Of a DNA stretch of 64,000 nt, positions 1-44,216 are shown piece after piece. The notes under the pieces are model-generated. The model had not been told where the DNA came from. It did not search any database and saw only the letters and a program-made list of their open reading frames with translations. Origin of the DNA: Neocallimastix sp. 'constans' (lineage: Eukaryota). Where the stretch lies: positions 434,001-498,000 of the forward strand of contig JBODTK010000119.1 in assembly GCA_050613775.1 (NCBI GenBank), given 5' to 3'. Positions within the stretch are counted from its first letter, which is position 1; each line of letters begins with the position of its first letter. Made by a program: the position numbers and the translations under genes.

Positions 1-835
1 CTTTTTCTTCCATCTCTGCTAATTCCCTGAAAGAGTAAGGACATTGGTTTAAGTAGTGTCCCACTTGACCACATTTATAGCATTTTCTATTATTTTGTTG
101 ATGTGTGTTTGAATTATCTTGGCGTCTTCTAGTCTGTTCTTGATTTGACTTCAGTTTATTTTCTTTTACATACCTATAATCGCTTCGGTCGTTATCCCTT
201 GTGTTGTATTTTCGGTTACCAAAGCCCTTGAATGGATGACCTCCGTAGTTGACTTTATAATAATAAGGTTGGTTGGATTGAAATGTTGCTAAAACAGTTT
301 CAGGCTTACGTAGGAAGTTTTCTTCAGCCCTTTCGGCTAGTTCGGCTTCTTCGAAGGCATCCTCCAGATCATAACACCTTTGGGTGATTACTTGAGACCT
401 TGCATAAGGTCTACTAGCAATGGATTCAATGTAATCGTCTACCGTAATGAAAGATTGGTATAGTTTGGAAAGACTATTATAAAGCTTTTTGTACCTCCAG
501 TTAAAGTTTTGAATACTTTCACCCTTTCTGATTCTAAGTTTCTGGAGTCTCTTGCATTTTTCCTGGGGAGTAACTTCAAGTGCATCTTCTATAGCCTTTT
601 TCATCTGGTCGATGGATGGATACTTCTTTCCCCCTTCTTCGTCGGTAGTTACTAAGTCTTGTAGTATACCTCTTAGTTTGCCTTCCACACATTCCATAGC
701 CCAGGAATGTATGTTCATAGGTTCAGTGATGTTTGCTAGTCTCATGATCCTAGCAAATTCATCACCCCAAGAATCCACATCTCTTGCTGTTTCGTTTAGA
801 CGAGGTAGAATCTCTTCGAGTTCCCTGATCTTCAT
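1..835 (-). CDS. gag: Gag protein with CCHC zinc knuckle (partial, open at the window edge)
   Basis: Manual translation from ATG at 835: MKIRELEEILPRLNETARDVDSWGDEF...LRIRKGESIQNFNWRYKKLY...KCYKCGQVGHYLNQC. Similar to E2/EB Gag (LRIKRNERIKDFNIKYKTLY). Absent from the ORF track, probably because there is no stop in the window. Confidence 0.9.
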   Translation of the reverse strand, partial: MKIRELEEILPRLNETARDVDSWGDEFARIMRLANITEPMNIHSWAMECVEGKLRGILQDLVTTDEEGGKKYPSIDQMKKAIEDALEVTPQEKCKRLQKLRIRKGESIQNFNWRYKKLYNSLSKLYQSFITVDDYIESIASRPYARSQVITQRCYDLEDAFEEAELAERAEENFLRKPETVLATFQSNQPYYYKVNYGGHPFKGFGNRKYNTRDNDRSDYRYVKENKLKSNQEQTRRRQDNSNTHQQNNRKCYKCGQVGHYLNQCPYSFRELAEMEEK

Positions 836-968
836 TTCTTTAGTTTTTTTTTTTTTTCTGTTTTATTTTATTTGCTTTATTATTATTATTATTATTTCGT
901 TTATAATATTTTATTTAATCTTCTTTCTTTTTTACTATCTATTAATGTTTCATATTATTATACTTTCG

Positions 969-985: not shown

Positions 986-1598
986 GAAATTATGGTACAG
1001 GACTTTTGAAATTGATGGATGTATAATAATATATTGGTAAATAGATAGTAGACGTATAAAAATTACGAAAAACTTATACAATATTTATTTATTTATTTAT
1101 TGATTATTTATTAATTTATTTATTTAAAAATTTATTTAACTATATATTATTCATCCATTTATTTATTTGTTCATTTATTTATTTATTCCTCCATTACATA
1201 AAAAAAAGAAAAGAGAGAGATTTAAAATAATATTATTACAAAATATTTTATAAATTTTGGTAATACATTGATTAGTTAAAAATAATTTTGTGTAACAATA
1301 AAATAATAATAAAATTTTAGATATGAATATTAATAATAAAAATAATAAAAAAATTTATAATATAAAATAAAATTTATCAAATGTATAATAAAAATATAAT
1401 AAGAATATAATAAAATATTTATTTTATAGCAAAATATTAATAATTAATAATATATATATTTATATAATAATAAAGGAAATATTGATAAAGTTAATAAAGA
1501 TAATAATTAATTAATAAAATAGATTTAAAACATATTTATATGGAGAAATATTAAAATTATTATAATTTAAGGTATTTGGGTAAATACCGTATCACGAA

Positions 1599-4500
1599 TG
1601 TTGAGGTTCATATTAGAAAAGGAGTGTGAACATTAAATAAATAGATAAATTAAATAACTATTAAATTACACTAAAAGAATTTATCATTACACATTATAAA
1701 TTTTATTTAAAGAACTATTATTAAAAATATTTATTATTTATAAATTATATAATTATTTTATTGTTAAAAATAACTTTATTAATATTAATATTTATTATTA
1801 TAACAATATGGGAAACCTTTCAATTCTTATTCCTATTTCATTATCACTACTATTTCTACTATTTCTTTTCTCAGAAAGGCCCCCTTCATAAAATAATATG
1901 GATAATACATATTTTATATTATTTAATTACATTATTAAAACCAATCATATAAATTAATTAATTACATAAATTTAATATTTAAAATAATAAAATATAACTA
2001 ATATAAAAATTATTAATATAGAATATAAGAAAATTATTAATAGTAAAGAATATAATAATATATTTTTATATAATAAATTATTAAAAATTTAATTAAAAAT
2101 ATCATTATTATTCTATTCTTTATCATGATGCCCCCGCTAAAACTTTTGCTATACTATAGCAAAGGCAAATTTTCTTATATTATTAACTAAATACTTATAA
2201 CTAAATAAAAATATAAATTTTTTTTTTTTTTTTTTTTTTTTTTATATATATATAATATTATCATTATTTCTTAAATTTAAAAATTTTTGTATATTTTAAA
2301 ATATATTTTAATATATGTATTAATTGAAATATTTAAATTAAATAATTTAATTTATATATTACCATATATTAAAAATTTTTCATAATAATTTTTAAAAGTT
2401 CCAAAAATTTCAGGATCAACTTGGATTGTACCAAAAAAAAATTTTTCAAATATTTTTTTTTTAATTTTTTTTTTTTTTTCTTGCCATTTTTTTTTATTTT
2501 TGTTATATTCTTCAGTTCTCCAGTAGCTTCGATATCTTCGCTAGTTATTTCAACTATGAACTTTAAAACTTCATTTTCTTCTTTCATTTAGAAATTAACC
2601 TTTTTTATTTTATTTTTTTTTTTTTATTTCTTCGTATAATAATTTCTTATTCAATTAAATTAAAAATTATTATATAACATATTTTGAAGGTTATATTTAA
2701 TATGTATTCTCCTTTTTTTTTTTTTTTTTTATATTTCATCATAATTATTATTACTAATGTTCAATTATCCTCTTATTTATTATATTCTTCTTGTTTTAAA
2801 GTTATTATTTCATTAAATTCTTTAATTCTATTTTCACATTGTTTTAATGAATTCTCTAAATCAGTGATATTAATATTATGTTCAAACTTCAATAATTCAA
2901 TTTATGAAACTAAATGAATTTTCCATTTGATATATCACTAATTTATATTTTATTTTTATTTTATTTTAAATTACTACTTTTACCAAGTTTCAAAGATTCA
3001 ATTTCACAATTTAATTTATTAATTTTCTTGGACTGTGAAGAATTGTTTCATTTGTAATATTTTCTTTTTTCAATTACTGAATTGTTCTCTTCCTGAATTA
3101 AGAATATTTATGTTATCTTTATAGGGATTTTTCTTACTAATATTTTCTTCTTTTTTTGTAATTTGAATAAAATTATCTTCTTCAAAAATAATTTTCTCTT
3201 TTTATTTTTCTATAATTTGAATAATATTATATTCTTCAAAAATATTTTTCTTTAATTCACTTTTTTTTAATTCACTTATTTTATCTTTCAATTCAGTTAT
3301 GCTTTGCATTAATAATTCTTCGTTTAAGATAACATCTGGAACTTGTTCTTCTCATATTTTGTTTAATTCTTAAAATGCTTAATGTAATTATATAATTTAT
3401 TAAATTCCTCAATTGGAATTCTAATTATTGATCATAAAAAAAAAAATATAAAATTTATTATGTTCTAATAAATTTTCAATTAATGTAATTATATAAACAC
3501 TAAATAATATAATAAATATTATTATTTCTTAAAAATATATTGTAAATTATTATTTTTTTTCTATAATTTCTTCAAAATTTGTAATATTTTAAGTATTAAT
3601 TTTATATTATAAACTAAATATAAATTATTTTAAATTAAAATTTTAAAATTATTCAATGTTTATTATATTGGAACTACCGCAGTAAACCAATATATTGTTA
3701 ACTTTCTTCAAGTTCGAAAATCCTTTTTCGACACCCAAGAAAGTTTTTAAATAATTTTTATATATTTATTCCTTCAAGTTCGGCACTCTCTGTCCGACAC
3801 TTAAGGATTAAAAAAAAAAAAATTATTATATTTACCTTCAGGCTCAGCACTCTCTGGCTGACCACCTAAGGATTTTATTTAAAAATTAAAAATTTCTTTG
3901 TTAGGCTCGAAATACTCTTCGACCACCTAACTAAAAAAAAAATAATTATTATATTGAATTCATTTTAAAATAATTCATTTTTATAACAATTTAATTTTAA
4001 ATTTATATATATATTATTTTTACTTAAGTTATTACTAAAATTTTATAATTAAATTTAAAATTTCTTTGTATTACTATTATGATCATTTAATTTTTATATT
4101 ATATTTTATTCTATTATTTTTATTATCTATTCATCAATGTTTTCACACTCCCCGATATCTCCACCAATTTTTATGTTAAGGTTCATATTAGAAAAGGAGT
4201 GTGAACATTAAATAAATAGATAAATTAAATAACTATTAAATTACACTAAAAGAATTTATCATTACACATTATAAATTTTATTTAAAGAACTATTATTAAA
4301 AATATTAATTATTTATAAATTATATAATTATTTTATTGTTAAAAATAACTTTATTAATATTAATATTTATTATTATAACAATATGGGAAACCTTTCAATT
4401 CTTATTCCTATTTCATTATCACTACTATTTCTACTATTTCTTTTCTCAGAAAGGCCCCCTTCATAAAATAATATGGATAATACATATTTTATATTATTTA

Positions 4501-4700
4501 ATTACATTATTAAAACCAATCATATAAATTAATTAATTACATAAATTTAATATTTAAAATAATAAAATATAACTAATATAAAAATTATTAATATAGAATA
4601 TAAGAAAATTATTAATAGTAAAGAATATAATAATATATTTTTATATAATAAATTATTAAAAATTTAATTAAAAATATCATTATTATTCTATTCTTTATCA
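1599..4700 (-). mobile_element. Non-autonomous LTR retrotransposon E1 (LTRs 1599-2125 and 4174-4700, 527 bp each)
   Basis: Near-identical LTRs TG...CA; tRNA-Ala PBS TGGTGGAGATATCGGGG (4150-4166); PPT GCGGGGGCATCA (2126-2137); CGAA TSD on both sides; no recognisable gag/pol. Confidence 0.9.
2369..3360 (-). pseudogene. Degenerate K/E/I/L-rich ORF remnants inside E1, unknown origin
   Basis: Short minus-strand frames (EEQVPDVILNEELLMQSITELKDKISELKK; MKEENEVLKFIVEITSEDIE) broken by stops and homopolymers; no RT/IN/Gag motif seen. Confidence 0.35.
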
Positions 4701-4704
4701 CGAA

Positions 4705-5886
4705 TGTTGAGGTTCATATTAGAAAAGGAGTGTGAACATTAAATAAATAGATAAATTAAATAACTATTAAATTACACTAAAAGAATTTATCATTACACAT
4801 TATAAATTTTATTTAAAGAACTATTATTAAAAATATTTATTATTTATAAATTATATAATTATTTTATTGTTAAAAATAACTTTATTAATATTAATATTTA
4901 TTATTATAACAATATGGGAAACCTTTCAATTATTATTCCTATTATCACTACTATTTTTACTATTTCTTTCCTCAGAAAGGCCCCCTTCATAAAATAATAT
5001 GGATAATACATATTTTATATTATTTAATTACATTATTAAAACCAATCACATAAATTAATTAATTACATAAATTTAATATTTAAAATAATAAAATATAATT
5101 AATATAAAAATTATTAATATAGAATATAAGAAAATTATTAATAGTAAAGAATATAATAATATATTTTTATATAATAAATTTGTCAAAGTTTTAAGATAAT
5201 TTGGTCTTAACGATTAGGTCAAGATGCCAAATTATAGTAATTAATTAATAACTTAATTTTGCTCTTATTTAAAACATATTGTTATTAGTAAATTTTATAA
5301 TTAAATTTTTATTTAAAATATAAATTTTATTTAATCTTAATAATATTTTATTACATTATTATTTTATATAATTATTACTATAATTTAAATTACAATAATC
5401 CTACAAAGGATTAATCAAAAGAATTTAAACATGTATTTATATAAAATAATTAATTATTAAAATATTAATTATTAATATGAATATGTAAATAATATTAATA
5501 TAAGTTTGATATTGATAATATAAAGTTAGATAATAATATAAAAATATAAATAAAATATAAGAATCAAATATTGCTAAATATTATAATTTATAATTAAAAT
5601 ATAATATGTAGAAATTAATTTAATATGACAATCACGTGTTTACATTATTTAATATATATTAAATTCAATATGTTAATAATATTTAGTAATTAGTTGGCCT
5701 AGACTAATTCCTAAATATTTTAATAAAGTTAATTTAATAATAATTATTATATTATTATTATTTATTAATATTGAAATTCAAATAACTGAATTATCGAAAT
5801 TGAAATTGAATTGAAATTCAGTTATTATCTTAACAAAATTATTAAAAATTTAATTAAAAATATCATTATTATTCTATTCTTTATCA
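4705..5886 (-). mobile_element. Solo LTR of the E1 family, interrupted by another solo LTR
   Basis: Nearly identical to the E1 LTRs with several differences; CGAA at 4701-4704 and 5887-5890. Confidence 0.9.
5181..5835. mobile_element. Solo LTR of an unrelated family
   Basis: TGTCAAAG...CTTAACA ends; 5-bp TSD AAATT (5176-5180, 5836-5840); removing it restores the E1-type LTR. Confidence 0.85.
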
Positions 5887-5890
5887 CGAA

Positions 5891-6549
5891 TGATACAGAA
5901 CATTTAAAATATTCCATATCTAGTTATTTATTTATTTGGTCGTTTCTCTAGGGAATTATGACACAATAATATATTCTAATAAATATAAGAAAATAATTTA
6001 TAATAATAATGTTTTATAATAATATTTTGTTCTTTATTTATTTTTATAATTTTATTTTTACATACATAATAATTTATTATTACATTCTCTTAATTTTATA
6101 TAATTGTTAAAATAATTAATTAATATTATATTTTTATTAAACATATCTCTTTAACTATTAATTTCCTAATAACTTTATTTAAAAATACAATTTCATTATT
6201 AAATATATTTAACTATTAATATTTAAAATATATTTCCTAAATAAAATATAATTATCAATATTTATAATATAATTCCTAAAACTATATAATTCTCAAAATA
6301 ATATTTAAAATATAAAATAAAACTTATTAATAATAATGATGAATTAATTTATTATCATAATAATAGAATCATTAATAATATAATTTATCTATTTTTAATT
6401 ATGATAAAAGAATTAACCATGCTTTTAAAAATAATTATTTGAATTAACTATATATAAATTATTTTAATTATTATAACCAATAATATTTATACAATATTTC
6501 TAACCTAAATTTCTTACCTAAATCTTATTTTTATAGTGGTATCGTATCA
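5891..6549 (-). mobile_element. Solo LTR with termini like E0
   Basis: Perfect 6-bp terminal IR TGATAC...GTATCA; ends resemble the E0 LTR; CGAA on both sides; orientation inferred from E0 similarity. Confidence 0.8.
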
Positions 6550-7603
6550 CGAATGGTAGACTCGGGGTTGACACTTAGATATTTAAAATCAAGCAGGGGG
6601 GGGACGGGTATTACCCTGCTTTGATTTTAAATAAAAAAAAAAAATAATAATTTTTTTTTTTAAAAGTTATTTATTTATTTTTTTTTATTAATATAAAATT
6701 TTTTATTTAAAGTACACACATTTAATTTTTAAGAAATTGTTACAATATTTATATTTTTTTATAAATTTAAAGTATAATTAATTGTTTATAATTTAAGTAA
6801 TTTTATAGAATTATTGAATTAATTTTATATCAATAATTCATTTTTGTTTTAATTTTTATAAATATAATAATATAATATTCAAATATAATTTAATTAAAAA
6901 TAATTATAAAATAAATATATAGAAAATAGTTTTTACTATTTTCTTTGATATTTTTAAGTTAAATAAATTGTTTTTAAAGATTAATATAATAAATTTAATA
7001 ATCTTTAATTATTTTAAATAATACTTGTAATTATTTTCAAAATAAAATAAAATTTTTATAATATTTAATTAATAAATTTGATAATATTTAAATAATAATT
7101 TTTATAATAAGTAAAATTTTTAATAATAATTTTTAATAATAAATTTAATTAATAATCTTAATAATTTTATAATAATATTTAATAGTTATAATATATAAAT
7201 TTTTATAATAATATTTAATAATTTTAATAATTTTATAATATTAATAATTTATAATAATTTTTAGAATAATATTTAATTAATAATTTTAATAATTTTATAA
7301 TAATTTTTATAATAATATTTAATTAATATTTTTAATAATTTAGTATCTTAAAAGTATAATTTTAATATTTACAATTGTATTTTAATATATACATATATTT
7401 AATAATATAACAATAAAGTGATTAATTAAAATTTATTTACATTATTTACAAATTAAAATTAATTTATATCAAAATAAATTAAATTTACAATGAGGTTTAG
7501 GTTATGAAGAATATAGGAAAGTACAATTTAGTAAAGAATTATTAATAATAAAATAAAGGTTATTAATTCATTCTTTACCATGATGCCCCCTCTAAAACTC
7601 AAG

Positions 7604-10600
7604 CTACATCGAAGCTGAGTTATACTTGACTATATTCTTCAAATGAACATTCCTATTCATTTGAATTCCAGAATTTGGATCAGCCAAGGTAACCGTATTA
7701 AATTGTTTTTTTATAACTTTAAGAGGACCAACAAAATAAGGTTCTAGTTTAGTTCTTGAAAAATTTCTAACTAGAACTAAATCACCTTCCCTAATTCTTT
7801 TTCCTTCATTCAAACTATTCTTTTCCTCTCTTCTAGCAGCCCAATACTTATTTGCATTTTTAACATTTTCGGCTGCTTCTAAAGTCCATCGGTAATGATT
7901 TATAAATTTTTCTAACAACACTTCATCCGATGACTTATTAATATCCTTGGTAGGTCTAGCAGCAATATCAAAAGGCTGCTGATCCTCCCTACCATAAACC
8001 AACTCAAAACTTGAATGTTTTGTTACCTTATTTTTGGTAGTTCTAAGAGCCCATAAGGCGGATGGTAAAACTTCATCCCAATCCTTATTCTTAGAACCCA
8101 ACAACCTCAATAACTTGCCGATCTCTTTATTACGGTTTTCCGTAAGTCCATTACTTTCAGGATGATATGTGGAAATAAACTTCACATATACATCATAGAG
8201 ATCTAAAAATATTTTCGTCATGTCCGAGGTGAACTGAACACCATTGTCAGTTGTTATTACCTGTGGAACACCATGACGAGCAAACACATTAATTAAGAAC
8301 TTAATCACATCCTGTGATGTTATATTTTCCGTGGGTTCTGCTTCAACCCATTTGGTGAAGTAATCCACCACAACCATAATATATTGATTATTATTTTTAG
8401 TTTTAATCAAAGGTCCAATAATATCTAAACCCAAATGTATAAAAGGACCTTCTACTTTAGTTGGAATATTTTCTGTAGGTTCTGGATATGGTTGTGACCT
8501 ATTCAACTGACACTTGTCACAACTTTGCACCACTCTTTTAATATCCATCACCATATTATTCCAATAAAAACTTTTACGAAGCCTTTGATAAGTCTTATAA
8601 TATCCCTCATGACCTATCTTATGGGCTTCTAAAATAAGTTTTACTCTTTCCGTTTGATCCGTAATTAATTTACGATAGTCATTACCATCAACAAAATAAT
8701 CTTCACCATCTATCGTAACAAATTTTTCATTTATAAAGTCTTTAATAGTTTTAGAAAGCAACTCTTCTTCTTCCTTTGAAGTTAACTTAGTTGCCAATAC
8801 CACAGAATCATCTCTTTTCTTCATCCTAGATAATGCATCGGCTAACACATTTTTCTTACCCATTTGATATTGAATTTCAACACCAAGGGTACTAACAGTT
8901 AAGCACCACCTTGCTTGCCTAGCATTATTAGGTTCCTTATTTTTAAAGAAACTGATTAAAGGTTTATGATCTGTTATTACTACTGTTTTATTAGGATTTC
9001 CTAATATATAAGATTTCAACTTAGTAATACAATAAATTAATGCAGCTCCTTCCAAGTCAGTAATGCCATAATTTTTCTCGGCTTTACTTAAACTTCTACT
9101 TATATAATGAACTGGATGTTCCTTTTTGGTTTCTAAATCTTCTTGGAGTAATACTCCTCCAATACCTTCATAGGAAGCATCCGTTCTAATTATAAACCTT
9201 TGATTAAAACTTGGATATTTTAAAATTGGAGCATTTATTAACTTTTCTTTTAACAGATCAAAACTTTGTTGATGTTCATTATTCCATTTATATTTAACAT
9301 TCTTTCTTAATAATTTACATAAAGGAGCAGAGATTTGGGCATATTTATCAATAAAGTTTCTATAATATCCTACTGCTCCAAGAAAAGATCGTAATTCATG
9401 AACATCAACAGGTGCTACCCACTCCTTGATAGCCTTAATTTTGCTATCCTGGGGACTTAAACCTTTCACTGATGCCTTATGACCTAAGACTTCTACTTCA
9501 GTCTGCATAAAGGCACATTTTTCAATGTTAATTTTTAATTTGTGTTGGCGAAATACTTCCAACACTTGCCTAATGTGGCTTATATGTTCTTCTATACTCT
9601 TAGAGTATATTAAAATATCATCTATAAAGTTAAAAACAAACTTTCCTATAAATGGGAAAAGAATCCTATTCATTTCCCTTTGAAATGTAGCTGGGGCTCC
9701 GGTTAAACCAAAAGGCATAACCTTGAATTGGTAGTTACCAAATTTTGTGGTGAAGGTGGTAATTTCTACACTTTCCTCATCCATCAAAATTTGATGATAA
9801 CCAGAGTAAAGATCCATTGTTGTAAAAATCTGTGCCCCATCTAAACTATCAAATATCTCATCAATGTAAGGTAATGAATAAGAATCTTTAACTGTTAAAT
9901 CATTAACCTTACGATAATCAATACATAATCGCCATTTACCGTTCTTCTTCGGTACTAACACTATTGGCGATGACCATTCGGAACAAGAAGGTTCAATTAA
10001 TTTCTTATTAATTAATTTAATTAATTCCTCCTTAAGTATATCCGACTTAAATTTAACTAATCTATAGCACCTTTGCTTAACTGGTTTCGCACCAGGAATT
10101 AAATTAATCTTATGTGGAGGAAGATCAGAAGGTGTTAATTCTTCTGAAGAAGTAGCAACTATTTCTAAGTTCTCCTCCAGAATTTTAATTATTTCATCTT
10201 TATATTTTTCGTTTAAAGTATTTAGGAAAATTTCATGATGAATATATTGCTTTGGGGATAATCCTTCAATTTTCTTTAAATCATTCTTTTTGGAATCCTC
10301 ATCCAAAGCCTTAATCATACACAACAACTTTTCTTCATCTTCATAATCATTATTAATAGGTGCAATAACGTCAATTACTCCCTCAGGAGTAATTTGACAC
10401 AAACTATATAAAATGGGGTGGATAAACAAATTATAATCAATTTGGGTTTTTAAGTTAATTAGAATATCGTAAAAAGGATCCTCCTTTTCTACTATTCTAC
10501 AATTAACCATTAATACAAGATTATTAATCTTTACTGGCACCCGAATGATATAACCTTCCGAGTAATCATCATTCTTAGTTGCCAACCTAATTCTGCCACG

Positions 10601-11653
10601 ACTAATATCAATAGGTTCATATTCGGACGGAAGCTTATCTAAAAATTGTTGAGTAATTATACTTAAATTACTACATGAATCAATTAAAGCCTTCCCCGAA
10701 ACACCTTCAACTGTAACATCAACCATGGCAATATCCTCTTCACATGGTTCGTTACCTTTACTTTTATAAGTGTGGTCTATGTTATTAACGACCACAGTCG
10801 TGGCTGACACATTATCCAACACCCCAGAGATATTAGATTGGTCCCTATCCAATTTAATACCCTGTGACACCTTATATCTTAATTTTGGAGCAGCATCCAA
10901 TAACTGTCCAAAAGTAATATTGCAATGGGCAGAATTTAAATCTTTAAGAATATCATATTCTTCTTCCCCCGATTGCATCTTAATTTTCCTAGATACTCTA
11001 GAACTTTTATTTTCTTTTTGAGTATCTTTATCTTTACTAATTAACACCTTTGTTAAATCAATTACTTTATTATTCTCCTTCACAATACTTTTTTTATTAT
11101 CATTATTTTCTTTCATTAAATTTTTATTCTTTCTTTTATCATTATTTACATTATTTATAATAACTTCATCATTCACTAATGAATTATTATTAATATTATC
11201 ATTACTATTATCATTACTATGATTATTACTATAATTAGTATTACTATTACTAGCTCTTTCATTATCACGAATTTGTCTTTCAATCTCTTTTTCTTTTTCA
11301 ATTCGTGGTTGAGCTAGAATAGATGGTTTAATTTGTTTAACAATTTTATTACTTATATTATTTTCTTTTACTTCTCGTTCTTTCTGTTTTCGTAATGCAG
11401 GAGTTATTATAGGTTTAGGATTCTCCTTCAACGACTTATGAATCCTTTTCTCTGCACTACCTTCATCATTATTAACATCATAAATTTTACGTTTAGATGC
11501 TCCTACTAAATAATCAACTTTCTTTTTATTAACCACCCTTTTATTAGCAGGAGTTTCTTCAATATTAGAAAGACGAGAATTTTTAATTTCTTTTTGATAT
11601 TTAAGTGAAGCTGCTTTATTAAGTATGGGAGAGCTTCTTATCCCATTACTCAA
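7604..11653 (-). CDS. pol: Pol polyprotein PR-RT-RNaseH-IN, expressed by -1 frameshift
   Basis: LIDSCS protease, FIDD RT, TDAS RNase H, H..H/C..C and DDE integrase, GPY/F-like tail; gypsy domain order. Confidence 0.95.
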   Translation of the reverse strand: MSNGIRSSPILNKAASLKYQKEIKNSRLSNIEETPANKRVVNKKKVDYLVGASKRKIYDVNNDEGSAEKRIHKSLKENPKPIITPALRKQKEREVKENNISNKIVKQIKPSILAQPRIEKEKEIERQIRDNERASNSNTNYSNNHSNDNSNDNINNNSLVNDEVIINNVNNDKRKNKNLMKENNDNKKSIVKENNKVIDLTKVLISKDKDTQKENKSSRVSRKIKMQSGEEEYDILKDLNSAHCNITFGQLLDAAPKLRYKVSQGIKLDRDQSNISGVLDNVSATTVVVNNIDHTYKSKGNEPCEEDIAMVDVTVEGVSGKALIDSCSNLSIITQQFLDKLPSEYEPIDISRGRIRLATKNDDYSEGYIIRVPVKINNLVLMVNCRIVEKEDPFYDILINLKTQIDYNLFIHPILYSLCQITPEGVIDVIAPINNDYEDEEKLLCMIKALDEDSKKNDLKKIEGLSPKQYIHHEIFLNTLNEKYKDEIIKILEENLEIVATSSEELTPSDLPPHKINLIPGAKPVKQRCYRLVKFKSDILKEELIKLINKKLIEPSCSEWSSPIVLVPKKNGKWRLCIDYRKVNDLTVKDSYSLPYIDEIFDSLDGAQIFTTMDLYSGYHQILMDEESVEITTFTTKFGNYQFKVMPFGLTGAPATFQREMNRILFPFIGKFVFNFIDDILIYSKSIEEHISHIRQVLEVFRQHKLKINIEKCAFMQTEVEVLGHKASVKGLSPQDSKIKAIKEWVAPVDVHELRSFLGAVGYYRNFIDKYAQISAPLCKLLRKNVKYKWNNEHQQSFDLLKEKLINAPILKYPSFNQRFIIRTDASYEGIGGVLLQEDLETKKEHPVHYISRSLSKAEKNYGITDLEGAALIYCITKLKSYILGNPNKTVVITDHKPLISFFKNKEPNNARQARWCLTVSTLGVEIQYQMGKKNVLADALSRMKKRDDSVVLATKLTSKEEEELLSKTIKDFINEKFVTIDGEDYFVDGNDYRKLITDQTERVKLILEAHKIGHEGYYKTYQRLRKSFYWNNMVMDIKRVVQSCDKCQLNRSQPYPEPTENIPTKVEGPFIHLGLDIIGPLIKTKNNNQYIMVVVDYFTKWVEAEPTENITSQDVIKFLINVFARHGVPQVITTDNGVQFTSDMTKIFLDLYDVYVKFISTYHPESNGLTENRNKEIGKLLRLLGSKNKDWDEVLPSALWALRTTKNKVTKHSSFELVYGREDQQPFDIAARPTKDINKSSDEVLLEKFINHYRWTLEAAENVKNANKYWAARREEKNSLNEGKRIREGDLVLVRNFSRTKLEPYFVGPLKVIKKQFNTVTLADPNSGIQMNRNVHLKNIVKYNSASM

Positions 11654-11659
11654 TTTAAA
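11607..11659 (-). promoter_or_regulatory. -1 ribosomal frameshift signal: U UUA AAU plus H-type pseudoknot
   Basis: Slippery heptamer just before the gag stop; stems AUGGGA/UCCCAU and GAAGC/GCUUC. Confidence 0.8.
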
Positions 11660-12333
11660 CGTTTATTGTTTCTAATTTCCTTCCTATTTTTCTCAACAAT
11701 TGCTCTCAACTTTGGGCAATTGTTTTGATAATGACCTGGTTCTTTACAGAAATAACAAGCCTTTATTGTTAAACTTCTCATTTTTCTTGTTAATTCCTCT
11801 ATGTCATTATCTTCTTTAGGTTTAATATTAACTTTTTGTTCTAATTTATTTTTAATAGGAGGATGAAAATTAACTCTATTATTAAAAGAAGATATATTTG
11901 CAGAAGGTGAAGGGGTAGAAGGATGTCTTCTTTGATTACTACCCATATAATTTAACCTATCTGCTTTTTCAGCAATTTTAAAGGCTTTTGACAGAGAAAT
12001 GTTATCAAATAAGGTTAGACGTTTCCAGGCTTCAACATTGTTTTCAATGGAGTCTGTGTAATCTAAAACACTTATCTGACTTCTTTTCTTTTTATTTAAT
12101 TTTAAATATAAAGTTTTATACTTAATATTAAAATCCTTGATTCTTTCATTTCTCTTAATTCTTAGAGCACGTAGCTCTCTTAATAAATTATTTTGATCCT
12201 CCCTAATGCCATAAAATTCTTCTATAGCTTTTACAATTCTATTAAGGGAAGGATAAGCTTTATTCTTTTTATCAATTTCTTTATCTTCTTCATTATCATC
12301 ATCCTCATCTTCATCATTAATATCCTTATAATT

Positions 12334-12370
<37 letters not shown>

Positions 12371-12600
12371 CTATCATCATCTTTATTATTATCATCCATT
12401 AATTCTTGGATGACTTTCCTGGTTTCACCAATTGAGGTTAAAACACAGGCATAAAATATAATCTTGGAGTCTTCAACATGTTCAAGCTTTATCCAAAGCT
12501 CTAAATCAGACTTCCAAGTTTTAACATCTAAATTTTCTTTGGATATTTTTTCAATATCCTTAAGTTCTTTTTTTAAATCTTTAAAATTAATTGAACTCAT
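11650..12600 (-). CDS. gag: Gag with acidic insert and CCHC knuckle
   Basis: CYFCKEPGHYQNNC; lies upstream of pol. Confidence 0.93.
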
Positions 12601-12970
12601 TTTAAAAAAAACACACTTTTAAAAAAAAATAAAATAAAAAAATTGATTTATTAATTATTTAATTGCTATATTTTTATTTATTTATTTATTTATTTACAAT
12701 TAAAATTATATATTTAAGTAATTTATATCTCTAGTGAGACGTTTCCGGCTAGTGTATATTTAATTTTGCTATATACACCCGTACTCCCCCTCCTGGACAC
12801 TAGAATAAATATAAATTAATAAACTAGTTGGAGTGTTCACTATTCTTTCAAGCTAATAACCCCTTTCGTTTATCTTTACTTAAATAAAAAAAATATATAC
12901 AATTATTTACAAAAAAAATTTTTTTTTTTTTTAATATAGCAATTAAAAATATTTAAAAACACAAAAATTA

Positions 12971-13001
<31 letters not shown>

Positions 13002-13589
13002 ATTTATTTATTTATTTGTTATCGGTTATTATTACAATATTTACAATTACAATTACAATTACAATTATTATTAAGTTTATATAATTACAACTTAAAAAAA
13101 ACAAATAAACTTAATTAAAAACAAGGTAAATTAACAAACCTAATACAACTTGAAAAACCGCTATCTATTACAACTGCCGACCACGCAGAGGGACCTTAGT
13201 ATTTCGGTATACTAAGTGAATTTGCCTGAGTCAAGTGGAGGAGCACCCAAACCGTGTTGAACGTATAATGGGTGATCTATAGGGTAATTTCTGCTTCCCA
13301 ACAGTATTTACCGCTATATCTAATCGGGGTTCGATTAGTTCGTAACCGGCCCCTCTCCAAACACCTGATTAAACCACTCGCAATTATAGAATTATCTATA
13401 ACTGCTTAGTACGCAGTAAACTCAGTATATAGTTTTATTTGGAGCACGCGAAGACCAAATAAAACTGATGTTAATTTTTATTACTACCACAACAACAACA
13501 ATCACAACAACAACACCAACCACAACAACAACACAAAAACCGATAACAATAAAAAAAAAATTTGATGATGATGATTGTAAAAGTGTAAA

Positions 13590-13647
<58 letters not shown>

Positions 13648-13744
13648 TAATTTAATTTAATTTAATTCTATTAAATTTAATTTAAAAAAATTATTCTCAT
13701 AATTCCAAAAAAAAAATAAGTCCTAGTAGTTCCAATTTCCTTCT

Positions 13745-14162
13745 TGGTCTTCTCCTTCTTGGTCTCTTCTTCTTGGTCTTCTTCTTGGTTTTCTTCTTGG
13801 TCTTCTTCTTGGTTTTCTTCTTGGTCTTCTTCTTGGTTTTCTTCTTGGTTTTCTTCTTGGTTTTCTTCTTGGTTTTCTTCTTGGTCTTCTTCTTGGTTTT
13901 CTTCTTGGTCTTCTTCTTGGTTTTCTTCTTGGTTTTCTTCTTGGTTTTCTTCTTGGTTTTCTTCTTGGTCTTCTTCTTGGTCTTCTTCTTGGTTTTCTTC
14001 TTGGTCTTTTTCTTGGTCTTCTTCCACTTGGTTTTCTTCTTGATCTTCTTTTTCTTGGTCTTCTTCCACTTGGTTTTCTTCTCGATCTTCTTTTTCTTGG
14101 TCTTCTTCCACTTGGTCTACTTCTTCTTCTTCTTCTTCTTCTTCTACTTCTTCTTCTTCTTC

Positions 14163-14194
<32 letters not shown>

Positions 14195-14291
14195 CTTCTT
14201 CTTCTTCTTCTTCTTCTTCTTCTTCTTCTTCTTCTTCTTCTTCTTCTTCTTCTTCTTCTTCTTCTTCTTCTTCTTCTTCTTCTTCTTCTTC

Positions 14292-14323
<32 letters not shown>

Positions 14324-14329
14324 CTTCTT
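13745..14329. repeat. (TTC)n microsatellite (~14120-14329) plus 12-bp minisatellite TCTTCTTGGT(T/C)T in the E2 leader
   Basis: Directly visible; begins immediately 3' of the PBS on the element strand. Confidence 0.95.
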
Positions 14330-15398
14330 CCCCGATATCTCCACCAATTTTGGTAGACTCGGGGTTGACACTTAGATATTTAAAATCAAGCAGGGGGGGA
14401 CGGGTATTACCCTGCTTTGATTTTAAATAAAAAAAAAAAATAATAATTTTTTTTTTTAAAAGTTATTTATTTATTTTTTTTTATTAATATAAAATTTTTT
14501 ATTTAAAGTACACACATTTAATTTTTAAGAAATTGTTACAATATTTATATTTTTTTATAAATTTAAAGTATAATTAATTGTTTATAATTTAAGTAATTTT
14601 ATAGAATTATTGAATTAATTTTATATCAATAATTCATTTTTGTTTTAATTTTTATAAATATAATAATATAATATTCAAATATAATTTAATTAAAAATAAT
14701 TATAAAATAAATATATAGAAAATAGTTTTTACTATTTTCTTTGATATTTTTAAGTTAAATAAATTGTTTTTAAAGATTAATATAATAAATTTAATAATCT
14801 TTAATTATTTTAAATAATACTTGTAATTATTTTCAAAATAAAATAAAATTTTTATAATATTTAATTAATAAATTTGATAATATTTAAATAATAATTTTTA
14901 TAATAAGTAAAATTTTTAATAATAATTTTTAATAATAAATTTAATTAATAATCTTAATAATTTTATAATAATATTTAATAGTTATAATATATAAATTTTT
15001 ATAATAATATTTAATAATTTTAATAATTTTATAATATTAATAATTTATAATAATTTTTAGAATAATATTTAATTAATAATTTTAATAATTTTATAATAAT
15101 TTTTATAATAATATTTAATTAATATTTTTAATAATTTAGTATCTTAAAAGTATAATTTTAATATTTACAATTGTATTTTAATATATACATATATTTAATA
15201 ATATAACAATAAAGTGATTAATTAAAATTTATTTACATTATTTACAAATTAAAATTAATTTATATCAAAATAAATTAAATTTACAATGAGGTTTAGGTTA
15301 TGAAGAATATAGGAAAGTACAATTTAGTAAAGAATTATTAATAATAAAATAAAGGTTATTAATTCATTCTTTAGCACGAATCTTAAAAATAATTAACT

Positions 15399-15452
15399 TG
15401 TCTTAGTTGTTAGTAACTAAGTCACCGATTTGAACTTCTCGAGTTCAAATCC
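15399..15452 (+). promoter_or_regulatory. Pol III type-2-like A box (degenerate TGTCTTAGTTG) and B box (GAGTTCAAATCC) in the C LTR; second copy at 29651-29704
   Basis: B box fits GTTCRANNC; A-to-B spacing 44 nt as in tRNA genes; T5 run at 15463-15467. Confidence 0.6.
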
Positions 15453-15921
15453 GCATAATTTCTTTTTATAAAAAAATTTATTTTAAAAAATTCTTATCTT
15501 ATCAAAAATTATTTTAAAAAGTTCTTATCTTATCAAAAAAAATTTTTTTTTATCAAAAATTTTATCAAATTATCTTAATTGGTTTAAAATTACATCATAA
15601 AAAATTTCTTTTGAAAATTTTTTGTATAAATACGAGTGAATTTTTCTTCAAAAAATATTTTTAAAAAATCGTGTTTTTTATTAATTATTTAATAAGTAAT
15701 TTAATTACAAATTTTTAATTAATAAATAAAAAAAAAAAATAAAAATAAAAATAAATTTTAACTTTAAAAAAAATAATAAATTCTTTTTTATTAAAAAACT
15801 TTTTACTTATTTATTTTTTATACAAACCTAGTGGTGTTAATTATTTTGGGTTACGCCCCGAATTCACGTTACAATAAAAAACACCACTGAAAAGAACCAC
15901 TACCTTTGTATAAATTCTTTC

Positions 15922-16099
15922 TTTTGGTTTCTACCCTTCAAGATATACTTTTGGTTTCTACCCTTCAAGATATACTTTTGGTTTCTACCCTTCAAGATAT
16001 ACTTTTGTTTCTACCCTTCAAGATATACTTTTGGTTTCTACCCTTCAAGATATACTTTTGGTTTCTACCCTCCAAGAAATACTTTTGGTTTCTACCTTC
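15922..16099 (+). repeat. 27-bp tandem repeat (TTTTGGTTTCTACCCTTCAAGATATAC) in the C leader, about 6.5 copies; continues at 24708-24780
   Basis: Directly visible; split by the solo LTR S insertion. Confidence 0.9.
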
Positions 16100-16597
16100 T
16101 GTAACGAAATCTTCATGATAAGAATGTACTAAATAATGCATTCTTAATTAAATCTACGATTTATTTCTAATACATTATGTGTACATTATTATTTTTGTAC
16201 TTTAATAAATTTTTAAATCCAAAGATCAAAAATTAAATCAAAAATTATATTAAACTTTATATTTTTATATTAAATCTTATATTAATAGTAATATTTTTAT
16301 ATATTTAAAACTTATATTAGCAATATTAATAATAAATCTTATTTTTTTTATATTAATAATGAAAATTTATATTAATAATATTTTTATATATTGATAATTA
16401 AAAATTTATATATTATATTTTAACTTTTTATTATAAAATTTTATATCGAAATGTTTTATTTTATATTGAAAAATATTTTATTTTATTAAAAACCTTTATA
16501 TTAGAATAGTATTTTTATTTTTATTTGAATATTTTAACAGATTGTAATAAAAATTTTAGCCAATTAAATAAATTCTTATTAGTAATATTTTAGATAG

Positions 16598-16645
<48 letters not shown>

Positions 16646-18314
16646 TATTAATATTATAAATGCATTTTATTTATATTGTTATAATTAAATTTTATATAAT
16701 TGATTATAAAAATCAATTTAAATTTAATAGTTTCATATATAAAAAGAAAAATAATAATAAAATGTAATTTAGTGGCAAGAACAACTTTTATGCCTTGAAA
16801 AAAAAGTATAAATAGTTGTAAATTTTGCTACTAATTTTTAAATATCATCAAATAAAATCAAATAAATTTATAAATAAAAATAATAAATAAATAAATAAAA
16901 TTTGTGTTTCCTTACTTTATTTTTATTTAATTCTCTAAAACCTTAACATTTATATGGTGGAGATATCGGGGAATTAAATAGAAATAATAGTAAATAACAT
17001 AGATTTTTTTTTAATTTTTTTTTTATTTTATATTGATAAACAAGTAAGTCGTTAATCCTTTGATTAACCCATGGCGCTTGTTTGATATATATATATAAAA
17101 AAATTTTTTTTAAATAAGTAAAATTAAGATTCTAAAAAAACAAATTTTGTAAAATTATAACAAGGAGCGGATAGAGCTCATACACAGTGTATTCTCAGAT
17201 AGCAACAAATTAACTCTATTCATAGTAGGTTATTGAATAGTAGTTAATTTGGAGATTAATTGGAAAGTAGACGAAGGTATTTGGTTACCGACCCGGTAAT
17301 AATAGTTCAACCTTCAACGTTTCAACACACGAAGGTGCGGGTACTTTCCAAGCACTGGCGAATAAGGAGCTTACGTCACCGAAGGCGTAAGATTGTTTTT
17401 TTTATATAATTTTTTTTACTTTTCTTTGTGCTAGTTATAAGGCACTTTATTATATAAAGTATCAGACTTTGGCTAACTTCGCCATTTAAATTTTTTTTAT
17501 TTTTTTTTATTACTGGTACTTTATTTGTTATATAATTCCTGTAATAGAATCTTAATTTACTTTGAAAATATTGTGTTTTTAGTTAATTTTTATTAGTTAA
17601 TAAAAATATTATTGAATACTTTTAAAATTTTTTTATTCCGTACATAGATTATCGGATTAAGTTTATCCTACATAGTAATTGGGCTAGTGGGCTCTGAACT
17701 GCTATATTTTATATTGAATATAGTAATCGTGGCACACGCGTGGCATGACACCATTAGGTAAGCTGCACGTCAGACAGTGTGTACTATCAGATTGTACGAC
17801 AATAAAGATTATTTTTTTGTATTTAATAATTATAATTAATTAATAATTTTATTAGCTATAACAATACAATATTTATCGTTTAAAAAGAAAAATTTTTGAA
17901 AGGTGAAAATAATAAATAAAACTTTGCTTCTAAATTTATTACTACAAATATACTAAATTACAAAATTCAAGTGGTCGATAAAGATTTCGAGCTTGAAAAA
18001 TATTCTATTAAGTTGTCGATAAAGATTTCGAACTTAAAATTATTCTATTAAGTTGTCGATAAAGATTTCGAACTTAAAATTATTCTTAAAAAAGTAGTCG
18101 AAAAGAACCTCGTGCTTTATAATTTCTACTAAGTTGTCGATAAGGATTTCGAGCTTATATCTACTAAAGAAAGCAAATAAAATTATTATTTTCAAAAGTT
18201 ACTAAAATATATTGTTTTAAAAATTGATTCGATATTAAATTACCTATTAAATTACATTTTGAAAGTTGGATTTCCCAAATTTATTTGTATTTAATCACCT
18301 CATATTTAGACAAA

Positions 18315-19226
18315 ATGTCCAAAGAAACAACTTTGAGCTTTAAAGAATTGAAAAAAGAATTGAGAGATATTGTGAAACTTAGCAAGGACAATTTAGATAT
18401 TAAGTCCTGGGCTACTGAATTGAAACTTTGGATCAAGATACAAGGTATCACAGATCCAGAAACAATATTTAATGCTTGTTTACTTACCAGCTCTGGTGAA
18501 GTACAACGCGTTATTGAAGATTTGGGAGAAGATAGTGATGATGAAAGTGATGATTCATCAGATGAAGAAGAAGAACATGATGAAGAAGAAAATGTTGATG
18601 ATGATATTAAATTTCCTTCTCTTGGAAAAATTATTTCAAGTCTTGAAAATTTTTACGGTATTAAAGAAGACCAAAATTTACTTCTTAAAGAACTTCGTGC
18701 AATGCGAATTAAAAGAAACGAAAAGATTAAGGACTTTAATGTAAGATATAGAACTTTGTACACTAAACTTGATAAAAAGAGAAGAAAGCGCATCGGTGTA
18801 CTAGATTATATTGATTCTATTCAAAATAATTATGAAGCCTGGAAGAAATTATCCCTTAAAGATGATATAAGTATGGAGAAAGCTTTCAAAATTGCCGAGA
18901 AAGTAGATAGACTTTCTGTAAGGAACAATAATATTAATACCTATAATGTTAATAATTCCCAGCATAATCAAAATAATCAAAACAGTACTACTTCAAGACT
19001 TTATCCTAAAAGAAGAAACGAAACTTTCCAAACAAGTCAAACAAATAATAAACTGAAACCTCAAGATATTATAGAAGAATCAACCCAGAAAATGAGAAAT
19101 TTATCTGTTAAAACTTGCTTCTTCTGTAAGGAAGAAGGTCATTACTCATACTATTGCCCTCAATTAAATAAGATTATGGAAAAAAATAAAAAAGAAATAT
19201 ATTCCAAAAAGTCTTTAAACTTCTAA
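18315..19226 (+). CDS. gag: Gag with CCHC knuckle
   Basis: ATG at 18315 (MSKETTLSFKELKKEL); CFFCKEEGHYSYYC; homologous to E2 Gag. Confidence 0.93.
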   Translation: MSKETTLSFKELKKELRDIVKLSKDNLDIKSWATELKLWIKIQGITDPETIFNACLLTSSGEVQRVIEDLGEDSDDESDDSSDEEEEHDEEENVDDDIKFPSLGKIISSLENFYGIKEDQNLLLKELRAMRIKRNEKIKDFNVRYRTLYTKLDKKRRKRIGVLDYIDSIQNNYEAWKKLSLKDDISMEKAFKIAEKVDRLSVRNNNINTYNVNNSQHNQNNQNSTTSRLYPKRRNETFQTSQTNNKLKPQDIIEESTQKMRNLSVKTCFFCKEEGHYSYYCPQLNKIMEKNKKEIYSKKSLNF

Positions 19227-19266
19227 ATGGGAGCAGAAGCACTCCCAATGACAAAACAATAGCTTC
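19214..19266 (+). promoter_or_regulatory. -1 frameshift signal: U UUA AAC plus H-type pseudoknot
   Basis: UUUAAAC at 19214-19220; stems UGGGAG/CUCCCA and GAAGC/GCUUC; the -1 frame is open into pol. Confidence 0.85.
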
Positions 19267-22200
19267 ATTAAATAATTTACAAAATAATACTTTTACTAAG
19301 AATACTCCAATTGATAATAATTCCTTTAATGAAGAATCTGAAGAATCTGATTTTAGTGACACAACTGAAAGTGAGGATGATATCATTATAAATGCTATAA
19401 AAAGAAAAATGAATGATAATAACAGCGAAAAAGAAGAAAATAATTCCAAGAAAGTACATAAAAGTTTAAAAGATAATCCACGTCCTTTCGCAACTCCTGC
19501 TTTAAGAAAGAAGAAAGAAAATGAGCTACATAATAAACCAAATAAAGTTTATAAAAATCAAATACTTCCTTCAATTTTAACTCAACCAAATATTAACAAA
19601 GAAAAACAAAAAGAAAAGGAATTAAGAAAAATAACAAGAGTAAGAGAAAGTAAAGAAGAAAACAACAATTATTCATCAAAAGGAAAGGAAAAAGTTGAAT
19701 CTGAAGATATACTCGTAATCGATAATGAAATAGAAGATCTAGAAATGAATAAAGATAATCAACAAAATAAAACTAATACTTTGGAAAAATTAATTTCAAC
19801 AAAAACTAAAGAAACTAATAATGGAAATACTCAGTTAGTAAAAAGGAATATTAAAATGATGAATAATAAAGAACCTTACAATATTATGGATGATTTAAAT
19901 AATCTTAAATCCAGTATTACGATAGGTCAACTCTTGAATGCATGTCCGAAAATTCGTTCACAATTAACTCAAGGTTTAAAGTTAGAAAAGTCTAAAATAA
20001 TTGGGACTGTAGACAATGTAATAGCACGAACTTTATTAGTAAATAACTATGATCATAGCTACATAAGTAAAAGTAATGAAGTAGCCGAAGAAGACTTAGC
20101 AATGGTTGATGCAAGTGTTGACGGAGTACTAGGAAAACTTTTAATTGATTCTTGTAGTAACCTAAGCATCGTTACTAAGCAGTATTTTGATAAATTACCT
20201 GGTGAATATGAAACAGTTGGAAAAAGTCGTGGAAGAATCCAACTAGCAACACAAGATGAAGAATACTCGGAAGGAATTATTGTTCGATTACCAGTAAAAA
20301 TTAATAATTATGAATTTAATGCGGACTTTAGAATTATTGAGAAAGAAGACTCTTTTTATGATATGTTAATAAACTTTAAAACTCAAATCGATCATTGTTT
20401 ATTTATTCATCCGACCTTAAACAGTTTATGTAAACTTTTGTCAGAAAGTGAATACGAAGAAATAGCTAAAATAAATAATCAATATTATGATGAAGAAAGT
20501 ATAATTTGCACTATTAGAAAAGTTAAAGAAACGAATAATGAAAAGGAAATTATAAAGGAATTAACTCCAATGGAATTTATTGAGAGTGATGAATTTTTAA
20601 GTACCTTAAATAAAGATTATAAAGAACAAATTATTAAAATTCTCAAAGAAATGATTGACATAGTTGCCACTTCAACAGAAGAACTAACTCCTTCTAAACT
20701 TTCACCACATAAGATCCGTTTAAAAGCAAATGCAAAGCCAGTAAAATTAAGAAGTTATAGGTTAACTAAATTAAAATCAGATATCTTAAAAGAAGAACTT
20801 ACAAAACTTATTAAGAAAGGATTGATAGAACCATCCTGTTCAGAATGGTCATCTCCAGTAGTACTTATTCTAAAACACAATGGAAAGTGGCGCTTGTGCA
20901 TTGACTACCGAAAAGTCAATGATATGACAGAAAAAGATTCTTATTCAGTTCCATATATAGATGAAATTTTTGATAGTCTCGGAGGATCTAAAATATTTAC
21001 AACTCTTGATTTATTTTCTGGTTTTCACCAAATCTTAATGGATGAAGAAAGCGTTGAAGTAACCACTTTCACTACTAAGTTTGGAAATTATCAATTTAAG
21101 GTTATGCCTTTTGGACTTACTGGAGCTCCCTCAACCTTCCAAAGAGAAATGAATAAAATTTTATTCCCTTTTATTGGTGAATTTGTTTATGTATTTATTG
21201 ATGATGTTTTGATCTATTCAAAAAGTATCGAAGAACATTTAATTCATATTAAACAAGTATTAGAAGTATTTAAAGAAAACAAGTTAAAAATTAATATTGA
21301 AAAGTGCCATTTTCTTCAAACTGAAGTTGATGTATTAGGTCACAAACTTACTACTAAAGGATTAAGTCCCATGGAAAGTAAGATAACAGCTATTAAGAAG
21401 TGGGAAGCCCCTTCATCACTTCATGAATTAAGATCATTTTTAGGAGCAGTGGGATATTATCGTGATTTTATTCCTAAATATGCTCAAATTACCTCACCTT
21501 TATGTAAATTATTGAAAAAGAATACTAAATATGAATGGAATAAAGAACAACAAGAAAGCTTTGAACTCCTAAAAGAAAAATTAATCAATGCACCTATTCT
21601 AAAATTTCCGTCATTTGACAAACCTTTTATCATTAGAACTGATGCTTCGTATAATGGAATTGGTGGAGTTCTTTTACAAAAAGAAGAAGAAACCGGTAAG
21701 GAGCATCCAATACACTTTATAAGTAGAAGTTTAAAGAAAGCTGAAAAGAATTATGGTATTACCGATTTAGAAGGAACCGCTTTGTTTTACTGTATGACTA
21801 AATTTAAATCTTATATTGAAGGAAATCCATTACCTACAACTATTTACACAGATCATAAACCATTAGTTGGTTTATTTAAGAATAAAGAACCTTTGAATGC
21901 AAGGCAAACAAGATGGTGTCTAACCGCTAGTATGCTTGGAATTAATATAAAATATGAATCAGGCAAAAAGAATGTGTTAGCTGATGCTCTTTCAAGAATG
22001 AAAAGTAAGGAAGAGAGAAAGATATTATTAACAAAAATTACTAATGGAAATAATGAAGAATTATTATCTAAGGTTATAAAGGAATTTATTAATGAAAAGT
22101 TTACTGTTATTGATGGTGAAGATTACTTTATCGACAATGGAAATTATAGAAAATTAATAACGGACGAAAATGAAAGGTTTAAATTAATTTTAGAAGCTCA

Positions 22201-23224: not shown

Positions 23225-23724
23225 GTCTTCGTCGGGGCATCTTGATAAGAATGTACTAAATAATGCATTCTTAATTAAATCTACGATTTATTTCTAATAC
23301 ATTATGTGTACATTATTATTTTTGTACTTTAATAAATTTTTAAATCCAAAGATCAAAAATTAAATCAAAAATTATATTAAACTTTATATTTTTATATTAA
23401 ATCTTATATTAATAGTAATATTTTTATATATTTAAAACTTATATTAGCAATATTAATAATAAATCTTATTTTTTTTATATTAATAATGAAAATTTATATT
23501 AATAATATTTTTATATATTGATAATTAAAAATTTATATATTATATTTTAACTTTTTATTATAAAATTTTATATCGAAATGTTTTATTTTATATTGAAAAA
23601 TATTTTATTTTATTAAAAACCTTTATATTAGAATAGTATTTTTATTTTTATTTGAATATTTTAACAGATTGTAATAAAAATTTTAGCCAATTAAATAAAT
23701 TCTTATTAGTAATATTTTAGATAG

Positions 23725-23772
<48 letters not shown>

Positions 23773-24098
23773 TATTAATATTATAAATGCATTTTATTTA
23801 TATTGTTATAATTAAATTTTATATAATTGATTATAAAAATCAATTTAAATTTAATAGTTTCATATATAAAAAGAAAAATAATAATAAAATGTAATTTAGT
23901 GGCAAGAACAACTTTTATGCCTTGAAAAAAAAGTATAAATAGTTGTAAATTTTGCTACTAATTTTTAAATATCATCAAATAAAATCAAATAAATTTATAA
24001 ATAAAAATAATAAATAAATAAATAAAATTTGTGTTTCCTTACTTTATTTTTATTTAATTCTCTAAAACCTTAACATTCAGTTAGTAAAATTAGAACTT

Positions 24099-24151
24099 TG
24101 GTTCAATGGTTAGTTACATTGACCATGACCAATACTTCATGGGTTCGACTC
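24099..24151 (+). promoter_or_regulatory. Pol III A box (TGGTTCAATGG) and B box (GGGTTCGACTC) in solo LTR S
   Basis: Both boxes are close to tRNA consensus; 44-nt spacing; T4 run at 24165-24168. Confidence 0.75.

Positions 24152-44171: not shown

Positions 44172-44216
<45 letters not shown>

Follow-up and report, generated by a model that had tools for sequence, protein, structure and literature searches.

A 64,000-nucleotide stretch of the genome of the anaerobic gut fungus Neocallimastix sp. 'constans' (contig JBODTK010000119.1, positions 434,001 to 498,000; hereafter the window) contains five long terminal repeat (LTR) retrotransposon units stacked at a single 4-bp site within the LTR of another element, the chromovirus H1. 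A further member of the same lineage, E3, has inserted independently into a solo LTR, H2. Both target sites lie a short distance upstream of a pair of motifs resembling boxes A and B of an internal RNA polymerase III (Pol III) promoter. From the sequence, we think it likely that the stack was built by an integrase tethered at a Pol III start by TFIIIC and TFIIIB on this motif cassette, the site being retained after each insertion. The window has a GC content of 24%, contains no N and consists of nested LTR retrotransposons.

Five junctions at one 4-bp site

The original prediction placed an LTR-terminal CA followed by CGAA at five consecutive junctions (1595, 4701, 5887, 6550 and 15377), and all five were found there. 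At junctions 1-4 CGAA is followed by the TG of the next LTR and at junction 5 by TCTTAAAA of the host LTR. The empty site, TGTAA-CGAA-TCTTAAAA, is seen in the host's 3' LTR at 29624, again as predicted, and that LTR is indeed followed by ATAGG and the Copia reverse transcriptase (RT) codons into which H1 inserted. Each of the five junctions carries one copy of the target-site duplication (TSD), equal to the empty site, which is the pattern of a double-insertion tandem. The string CACGAATG occurs four times in positions 1-15400, where an order-2 Markov model predicts 0.056 occurrences; a fifth match, at 24477, is away from any junction. The TSD is 4 bp at both target sites of the lineage (CGAA for the stack, TTCA for E3) and 5 bp in the four insertions from other families whose two flanks can both be seen in the window. 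The identity of spacer and empty site, the 4-bp repeats of two intact members and the 5-bp repeats of the other families bear out the earlier claim of repeated, base-exact integration with a 4-bp duplication. The stack, read towards its host, is composed as follows.

2..862, minus strand: E0 gag with a zinc knuckle, extending beyond the window; sister lineage to E2
993..1594, minus strand: E0 5' LTR, 602 bp, followed in element orientation by the primer-binding site (PBS) TGGCGAG
1595..1598, no strand: CGAA spacer 1 (TSD)
1599..4700, minus strand: E1, a non-autonomous LTR element, with LTRs at 1599-2125 and 4174-4700, polypurine tract (PPT) at 2126 and PBS TGGTGGAGATATCGGG
4701..4704, no strand: CGAA spacer 2
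4705..5886, minus strand: solo E1 LTR, 5-7 substitutions from the E1 LTRs, carrying a nested LTR
5181-5835, within the solo E1 LTR: nested 655-bp solo LTR of another family, with 5-bp TSD AAATT
5887..5890, no strand: CGAA spacer 3
5891..6549, minus strand (from its ends): solo LTR of a fourth family, 659 bp, with E0-like ends
6550..6553, no strand: CGAA spacer 4
6554..15376, minus strand: E2, a full Ty3/gypsy element with LTRs at 6554-7580 and 14351-15376 and open gag and pol
7604-11662, minus strand: E2 pol, with RT, RNase H and integrase, without chromodomain
11650-12618, minus strand: E2 gag, open
15377..15380, no strand: CGAA spacer 5, the copy adjoining the target motif

All units lie on the minus strand with their 5' LTRs on the host side, in agreement with the uniform orientation first reported, the 659-bp solo LTR being oriented from its ends only. 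That unit had been called E0-like; the similarity is confined to the ends (20% substitutions, many gaps) and, because the four LTR types share no blastn similarity with one another (dust on), it is assigned to a family of its own. The nested 655-bp solo LTR was absent from the first list of units. The two LTRs of E2 differ by one substitution in 1026 positions (0.10%) and those of E1 by two in 527 (0.38%), compared with three differences in 497 (0.60%) for the host. No coding remnant was detected in E1 by tblastn against the proteins of the lineage (E < 0.1). The PBS TGGTGGAGATATCGGG is common to E1, E2 and E3, E0 having TGGCGAG; the original prediction labelled the PBS of the stacked units Ala and probably Arg.

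It is very unlikely that unequal recombination or gene conversion among host LTR copies multiplied or rearranged one or two original insertions. E1 does adjoin a solo E1 LTR, and solo LTRs are themselves evidence of recombination here, but each of the four mutually dissimilar LTR families has intact ends and CGAA. Had recombination gone through shared LTRs, no TSD would remain between unlike families, and site-exact insertions would still be required first. Misassembly of repeats is likewise very unlikely. In the public-run comparison, which covered junction 5 in 4 of the 21 listed runs, no piece bridging this junction was present among the contig pieces listed, and the region is AT-rich and repetitive; against this, each junction consists of exactly four empty-site bases between intact LTR ends, and adjacent units have no common sequence through which they could be misjoined. 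Other host-family copies with an empty site were visible in three public runs, as loose ends at 15376.

Pol III-type motifs beside both target sites

The host, the second insertion and the motif cassettes occupy the following positions.

15377..30139, plus strand: H1, the host chromovirus, with a 5' LTR remnant at 15377-15873 and the 3' LTR at 29624-30139
15399..15467, plus strand: cassette in the H1 5' LTR, with box A TGTCTTAGTTG (15399), box B GTTCAAATC (15443) and a T5 run
16100..24707, plus strand: H2, a solo LTR with a head related to that of H1 and 5-bp TSD CCTTC, interrupted by E3
16116..24075, plus strand: E3, the second, independent insertion of the lineage, with 4-bp TSD TTCA and PBS as in E2
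24099..24168, plus strand: cassette in H2, with box A TGGTTCAATGG (0 mismatches), box B GTTCGACTC (24143) and a T4 run

From the end of the TSD to box A the distance is 18 nt for the stack in H1 and 19 nt for E3 in H2, so that the motif accompanies 2/2 target sites of the lineage in the window, and boxes A and B are 44 nt apart in both cassettes. The original prediction was silent on any Pol III-type motif. A motif pair was defined as a box B match with a box A (at most two mismatches) 40-50 nt upstream, and both strands of the 64 kb were scanned. Sixteen box B matches were found, four of them with a paired box A: two in H1, one in H2 and one in coding DNA. The mean in 40 shuffles was 0.6 pairs, which for a 5-nt window corresponds to about 5e-5 per site. 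Insertion ends of other families, nine in number, are all more than 480 bp from any such pair.

Following tRNA numbering, the equivalent of tRNA position +1 was placed 7 nt before box A. The LTR ends then lie 15 bp and 16 bp upstream of it, both within the interval of 13-18 bp upstream that accounts for 18/20 DGLT-A cases (PMC6101501). Each cassette folds as two hairpins, with z scores of -4.9 (H1) and -3.2 (H2). In the 3' LTR of H1 the empty site is accompanied by a cassette identical in kind to that of the 5' LTR, with box A at 29651. A true tRNA gene was ruled out as the target, since ARAGORN found 0 genes and there was no Rfam tRNA match to E 10.

H2 starts with TGTAACGAA, as does H1, and its CGAA, 26 nt from box A, is unoccupied; E3 lies 7 nt further on. 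With E3 at a TTCA 19 nt before box A and the CGAA of H2 empty, the insertion site appears to track box A rather than the LTR end or CGAA. The original prediction centred on CGAA, which holds for the stack but is an incomplete description of the lineage, as E3 ignored the CGAA at the equivalent LTR position.

The gag-pol of H1 (25168-29345) is spread over several frames, and a chromodomain follows its integrase (PF00385, E 5.7e-19), as expected of a chromovirus. Directly after its 5' LTR come 11 bases that can pair with LTR position 15671, a low-complexity match, which suggests self-priming of the type known from Tf1 and a Pol II start at 15671. With such a start the stack would lie at the far 5' end of U3. 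The H1 leader contains a 27-bp tandem repeat (15896-16100, 24708-24830), which is the insertion place of H2.

In element orientation the TSDs are TTCG and TTCA, and the two sites are oppositely oriented relative to the boxes. This favours an integrase that reads a short sequence, a TTCR core plus flanks, with double insertion at the regenerated motif and the boxes as bystanders. All five units facing in the same direction (one oriented from its ends only) would also agree with such reading, and double insertion requires just a site preference and a TSD (10.1101/158386). Nevertheless, we hold it to be improbable: CGAA occurs 148 times and TTCG 139 times in the window, H2's own TGTAACGAA was left unused, the flanks of the two sites mismatch in register, and the spacing of both sites from a rare motif is that of Ty3.

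The cue could instead be some other feature of H-type LTR heads, such as the double hairpin, a cruciform or a bound non-Pol III protein, in which case those LTRs, rather than Pol III genes, would be targeted by the lineage. Each head is a strong inverted repeat, as the z scores indicate, and the two are related; the cassettes are not tRNAs; and plant LTR elements show a weak palindrome preference (PMC6911290). However, the hairpin arms differ between H1 and H2, yet both boxes, their spacing and the T-run are kept. In addition, the E2 LTR end is some 13-15 times deeper than the H1 head in public runs (contig depth 9312 against 624-677 in one run and 12961 against 991 in a second, depth not being equal to copy number), so that most E2 LTRs would need other targets or long stacks. 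We consider this explanation, too, to be an unlikely one. The excess depth makes host LTRs less likely as the main target and suggests that most E2 copies are at other targets, probably true tRNA genes.

Several points weigh against tethering at a Pol III start. The box A of H1 has two mismatches, the motif thresholds were chosen after the insertion sites were known, neither cassette was scored as a tRNA by ARAGORN or Rfam, and there is no true tRNA gene in the 64-kb window. The two TSDs agree at 3/4 bases, as expected from a sequence-reading integrase. There are only two sites and, the heads of H1 and H2 being related, some other shared feature could be the cue. The integrase is without Ty3's C-terminal extension, and the site was used base-exactly five times, unlike those of Ty3 and Tj1, with their 5-bp TSDs and scatter over several bases. 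The original prediction put the newest unit beside the host; the order of LTR divergence runs in that direction but the gradient is not significant (Fisher p 0.27 and 0.10). Finally, the flank of any other copy of the lineage was not recovered in the metagenome, viral-contig and prokaryote-bin scans described below.

The lineage and its copies elsewhere

E2 and E3 have the gene order RT, RNase H, integrase together with TG..CA LTRs, PBS and PPT, as in Ty3/gypsy elements, and the stacked units are, as judged from their sequences, LTRs of four families within one Ty3/gypsy lineage of anaerobic gut fungi. A quick RT tree was made with 70 rows from 161 candidates, the remainder being without a long RT match. 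E2, E3 and a further contig, L105, fall into one 30-row group (SH-aLRT 94), separate from the chromovirus group that contains H1 (99). L105 has an E0-type gag (58% identical to E0 gag), a PBS start equal to that of E0 and a pol 46% identical to E2 pol; the gags of E0 and E2 share 29% identity. E3 pol is 65% identical to E2 pol, and the 833-bp LTRs of E3 are identical to each other. The lineage is not chromoviral, given that it has no Chromo domain match and that its RTs group outside the chromoviruses in this 70-row quick tree.

The E2 integrase region has relatives in a block of ~99 clusters, mostly at 44-100% identity, below which most matches are at ~30%. Organism names in the eight clusters looked up are only those of anaerobic gut fungi, namely Pecoramyces and, in one cluster, Neocallimastix lanati. 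The integrase tail is short: of 99 relatives examined, 95 have the GP motif, and in 91 of these 36-53 residues remain after it. The E2 integrase end aligns at Ty3 residue 1443 of 1547, ~100 residues of the Ty3 tail being absent. With so short an end and no Ty3 tail, any integrase contact would differ from that of Ty3.

The gag and pol frames overlap in E2 (11650-11662, minus strand) and E3 (19190-19226, plus strand), and in E2 a TTTAAAT directly before the gag stop is a likely -1 frameshift heptamer. The E2 LTR has a strong inverted repeat with arms of ~19 bp close to its U5 end (6576-6633, 14373-14430). Directly after the E2 PBS, at 13690-14330, lies a long purine-rich tract of 12-bp and 3-bp tandem repeats with several frames open, of which E1 has only a short version. 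The PBS of lineage members lies 3-6 nt from the LTR end, with a spacer that differs by family (4150-4173, 14330-14350, 16949-16970, 970-992). Further along the window are two related chromovirus-group elements (30398-37181 and 42897-50129) with 5-bp TSDs, each in a different Copia; their LTRs end in TATA, not CA, and the first has an in-frame stop at 35812.

Animal faeces metagenomes contain DNA near-identical to the window. A metagenome scan with the E2 LTR end gave 18 loci, 17 unlike the window and one a collapsed internal E2 contig without flank. In viral contigs there was no match to the E2 LTR end, E2 pol or H1 pol; alignment of the lineage recovered only distant gypsy elements and apparent pararetroviruses, and the host-head pattern two loci, seemingly by chance. 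The prokaryote bins gave 13 loci, 12 of them AT-rich contigs from five bins, collapsed elements without flanks. No H-type head was present in these or any other locus recovered. The five bins, of rumen or gut type (G001-G005; L099-L110), are likely contaminated, as they contain AT-rich fungal retrotransposon contigs.

A loose box A pattern proved too unspecific for use across the prokaryote bins. The LTR shared by the L110 and L140 ends was rejected as a lineage member, being of a different family inserted in coding DNA; this family, TGTAAAATAATCCG, is found in the coding DNA of two different elements (L110 3210-3391, L140 3216-3344). Among the public runs, a loose end at 15326 in run X3 appears to join the end of the 655-bp nested LTR to another E2 LTR copy. 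In run X14 a loose end at 15378 has ACAACA before GAATCTT in one contig, which may be another LTR one base off or a decayed host start.

Proposed mechanism and known systems

If the integrase is tethered at the Pol III start, TFIIIC on boxes A and B would position TFIIIB upstream, and the integrase would cut at the start site with a 4-bp stagger. For Ty3, integration depends on intact boxes and on TFIIIB being loaded, and full transcription is dispensable (PMC5911963). With an internal promoter, and with CGAA left in place on the promoter side, the site would be reusable; a TSD is known to preserve a site for reuse (10.1101/158386), and in dictyostelids an already used tRNA gene takes further elements (PMC5006619). 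The same bonds would be offered again and, as the promoter and the nearest CGAA survive insertion, a newcomer would settle between the host and the previous unit, displacing older units outward. Later LTR-LTR recombination could then turn some units into solo LTRs. Local bases (TTCR in element orientation) probably set register and orientation, since both TSDs are TTCR while the orientation relative to the boxes is reversed between the two sites. Two fresh sites would come with each new host copy, the stack being in the U3 of the 5' LTR, which is no template for progeny LTRs.

A bolder reading, which we put forward as a doubtful possibility, is that the U3 of anaerobic-fungal chromoviruses holds a working Pol III gene, for a short two-hairpin RNA, or a chromatin barrier like that of tRNA genes, the mobile cassettes being a main target of the second lineage. 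The host would then spread landing pads when jumping, and every pad would come to bear a base-exact, time-ordered stack drawn from several families, in which a hyperparasite's past is recorded.

Pol III targeting, stacking and box-bearing LTRs, as in Helenus, are already known separately (PMC10886601), and LTR elements of anaerobic fungi are termed largely uncharacterised in a 2026 review (PMC13728883). No literature report was found of such targeting in anaerobic fungi, nor of one element targeting a Pol III cassette in the LTR of another or of a 4-bp, base-exact LTR stack there, in a search outside which lay most subscription journals and the Navaratna 2024 study on LTR elements of anaerobic fungi, which may already describe such arrays.

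If tethering is correct, the lineage represents a further independent origin of Pol III start targeting, with a 4-bp stagger and without the Ty3 tail, in a phylum of fungi that branched early and has large genomes rich in repeats. LTR-borne Pol III cassettes would be read by the cell and attract other elements, so that another parasite's promoter becomes a reusable landing pad, and polarised stacks would reveal in which order the families were active, with no need of a molecular clock. The base-exact integrase of E2 and E3, with its open reading frames, is a possible safe-harbour insertion tool in anaerobic fungi.

Ty3 and, in Yarrowia, Tyl3/Tyl6 target Pol III starts via TFIIIB (PMC5014426, PMC5911963, 10.1101/2021.07.27.453949), and Ty3-type elements insert 15-17 bp upstream, TSD included (PMC5014426). 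The present lineage resembles Ty3 in its Ty3/gypsy gene order and in the position of its LTR ends, 15-16 bp as against 15-17 bp before tRNA +1. It differs in having a TSD of 4 bp instead of 5 bp, and a candidate cassette within the LTR of another element takes the place of a tRNA gene as its target. The C-terminal targeting extension with chromodomain is absent, the tail being shorter by the ~100 residues mentioned above.

DGLT-A of Dictyostelium shares with the lineage the 13-18 bp window, a short integrase tail without chromodomain, a gag zinc knuckle and the presence of several elements per target (PMC5006619, PMC6101501). The DGLT-A integrase has a 32-residue extension, and its contact is described as differing from that of Ty3. 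The fungal elements have two overlapping frames where DGLT-A has one and belong to a different kingdom. Tj1 of Schizosaccharomyces japonicus likewise inserts just upstream of Pol III genes (PMC4600332), but with a 5-bp TSD, 5-11 bp from the mature end and self-primed. The orientation of Tj1 is fixed, whereas here it is constant within a site and different between sites.

Box A and box B within an LTR are also seen in Helenus/Cassandra (TRIMp3; PMC10886601). Unlike Helenus, H1 is a gag-pol chromovirus, not a short non-coding terminal-repeat retrotransposon in miniature (TRIM), and H2 is a solo LTR; the cassette of H1 and H2 has no recognisable tRNA-derived sequence, and its end, close to the LTR start, is a T-run. 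The accessible text on Helenus does not describe the LTR boxes as a target for other elements (PMC10886601). Retention of a TSD at each junction is shared with the double-insertion tandems of R1, the P element and jockey (10.1101/158386). Tandems of LTR elements have been ascribed in that source to recombination through shared LTRs, whereas the stack in H1 consists of unlike families joined by TSDs.

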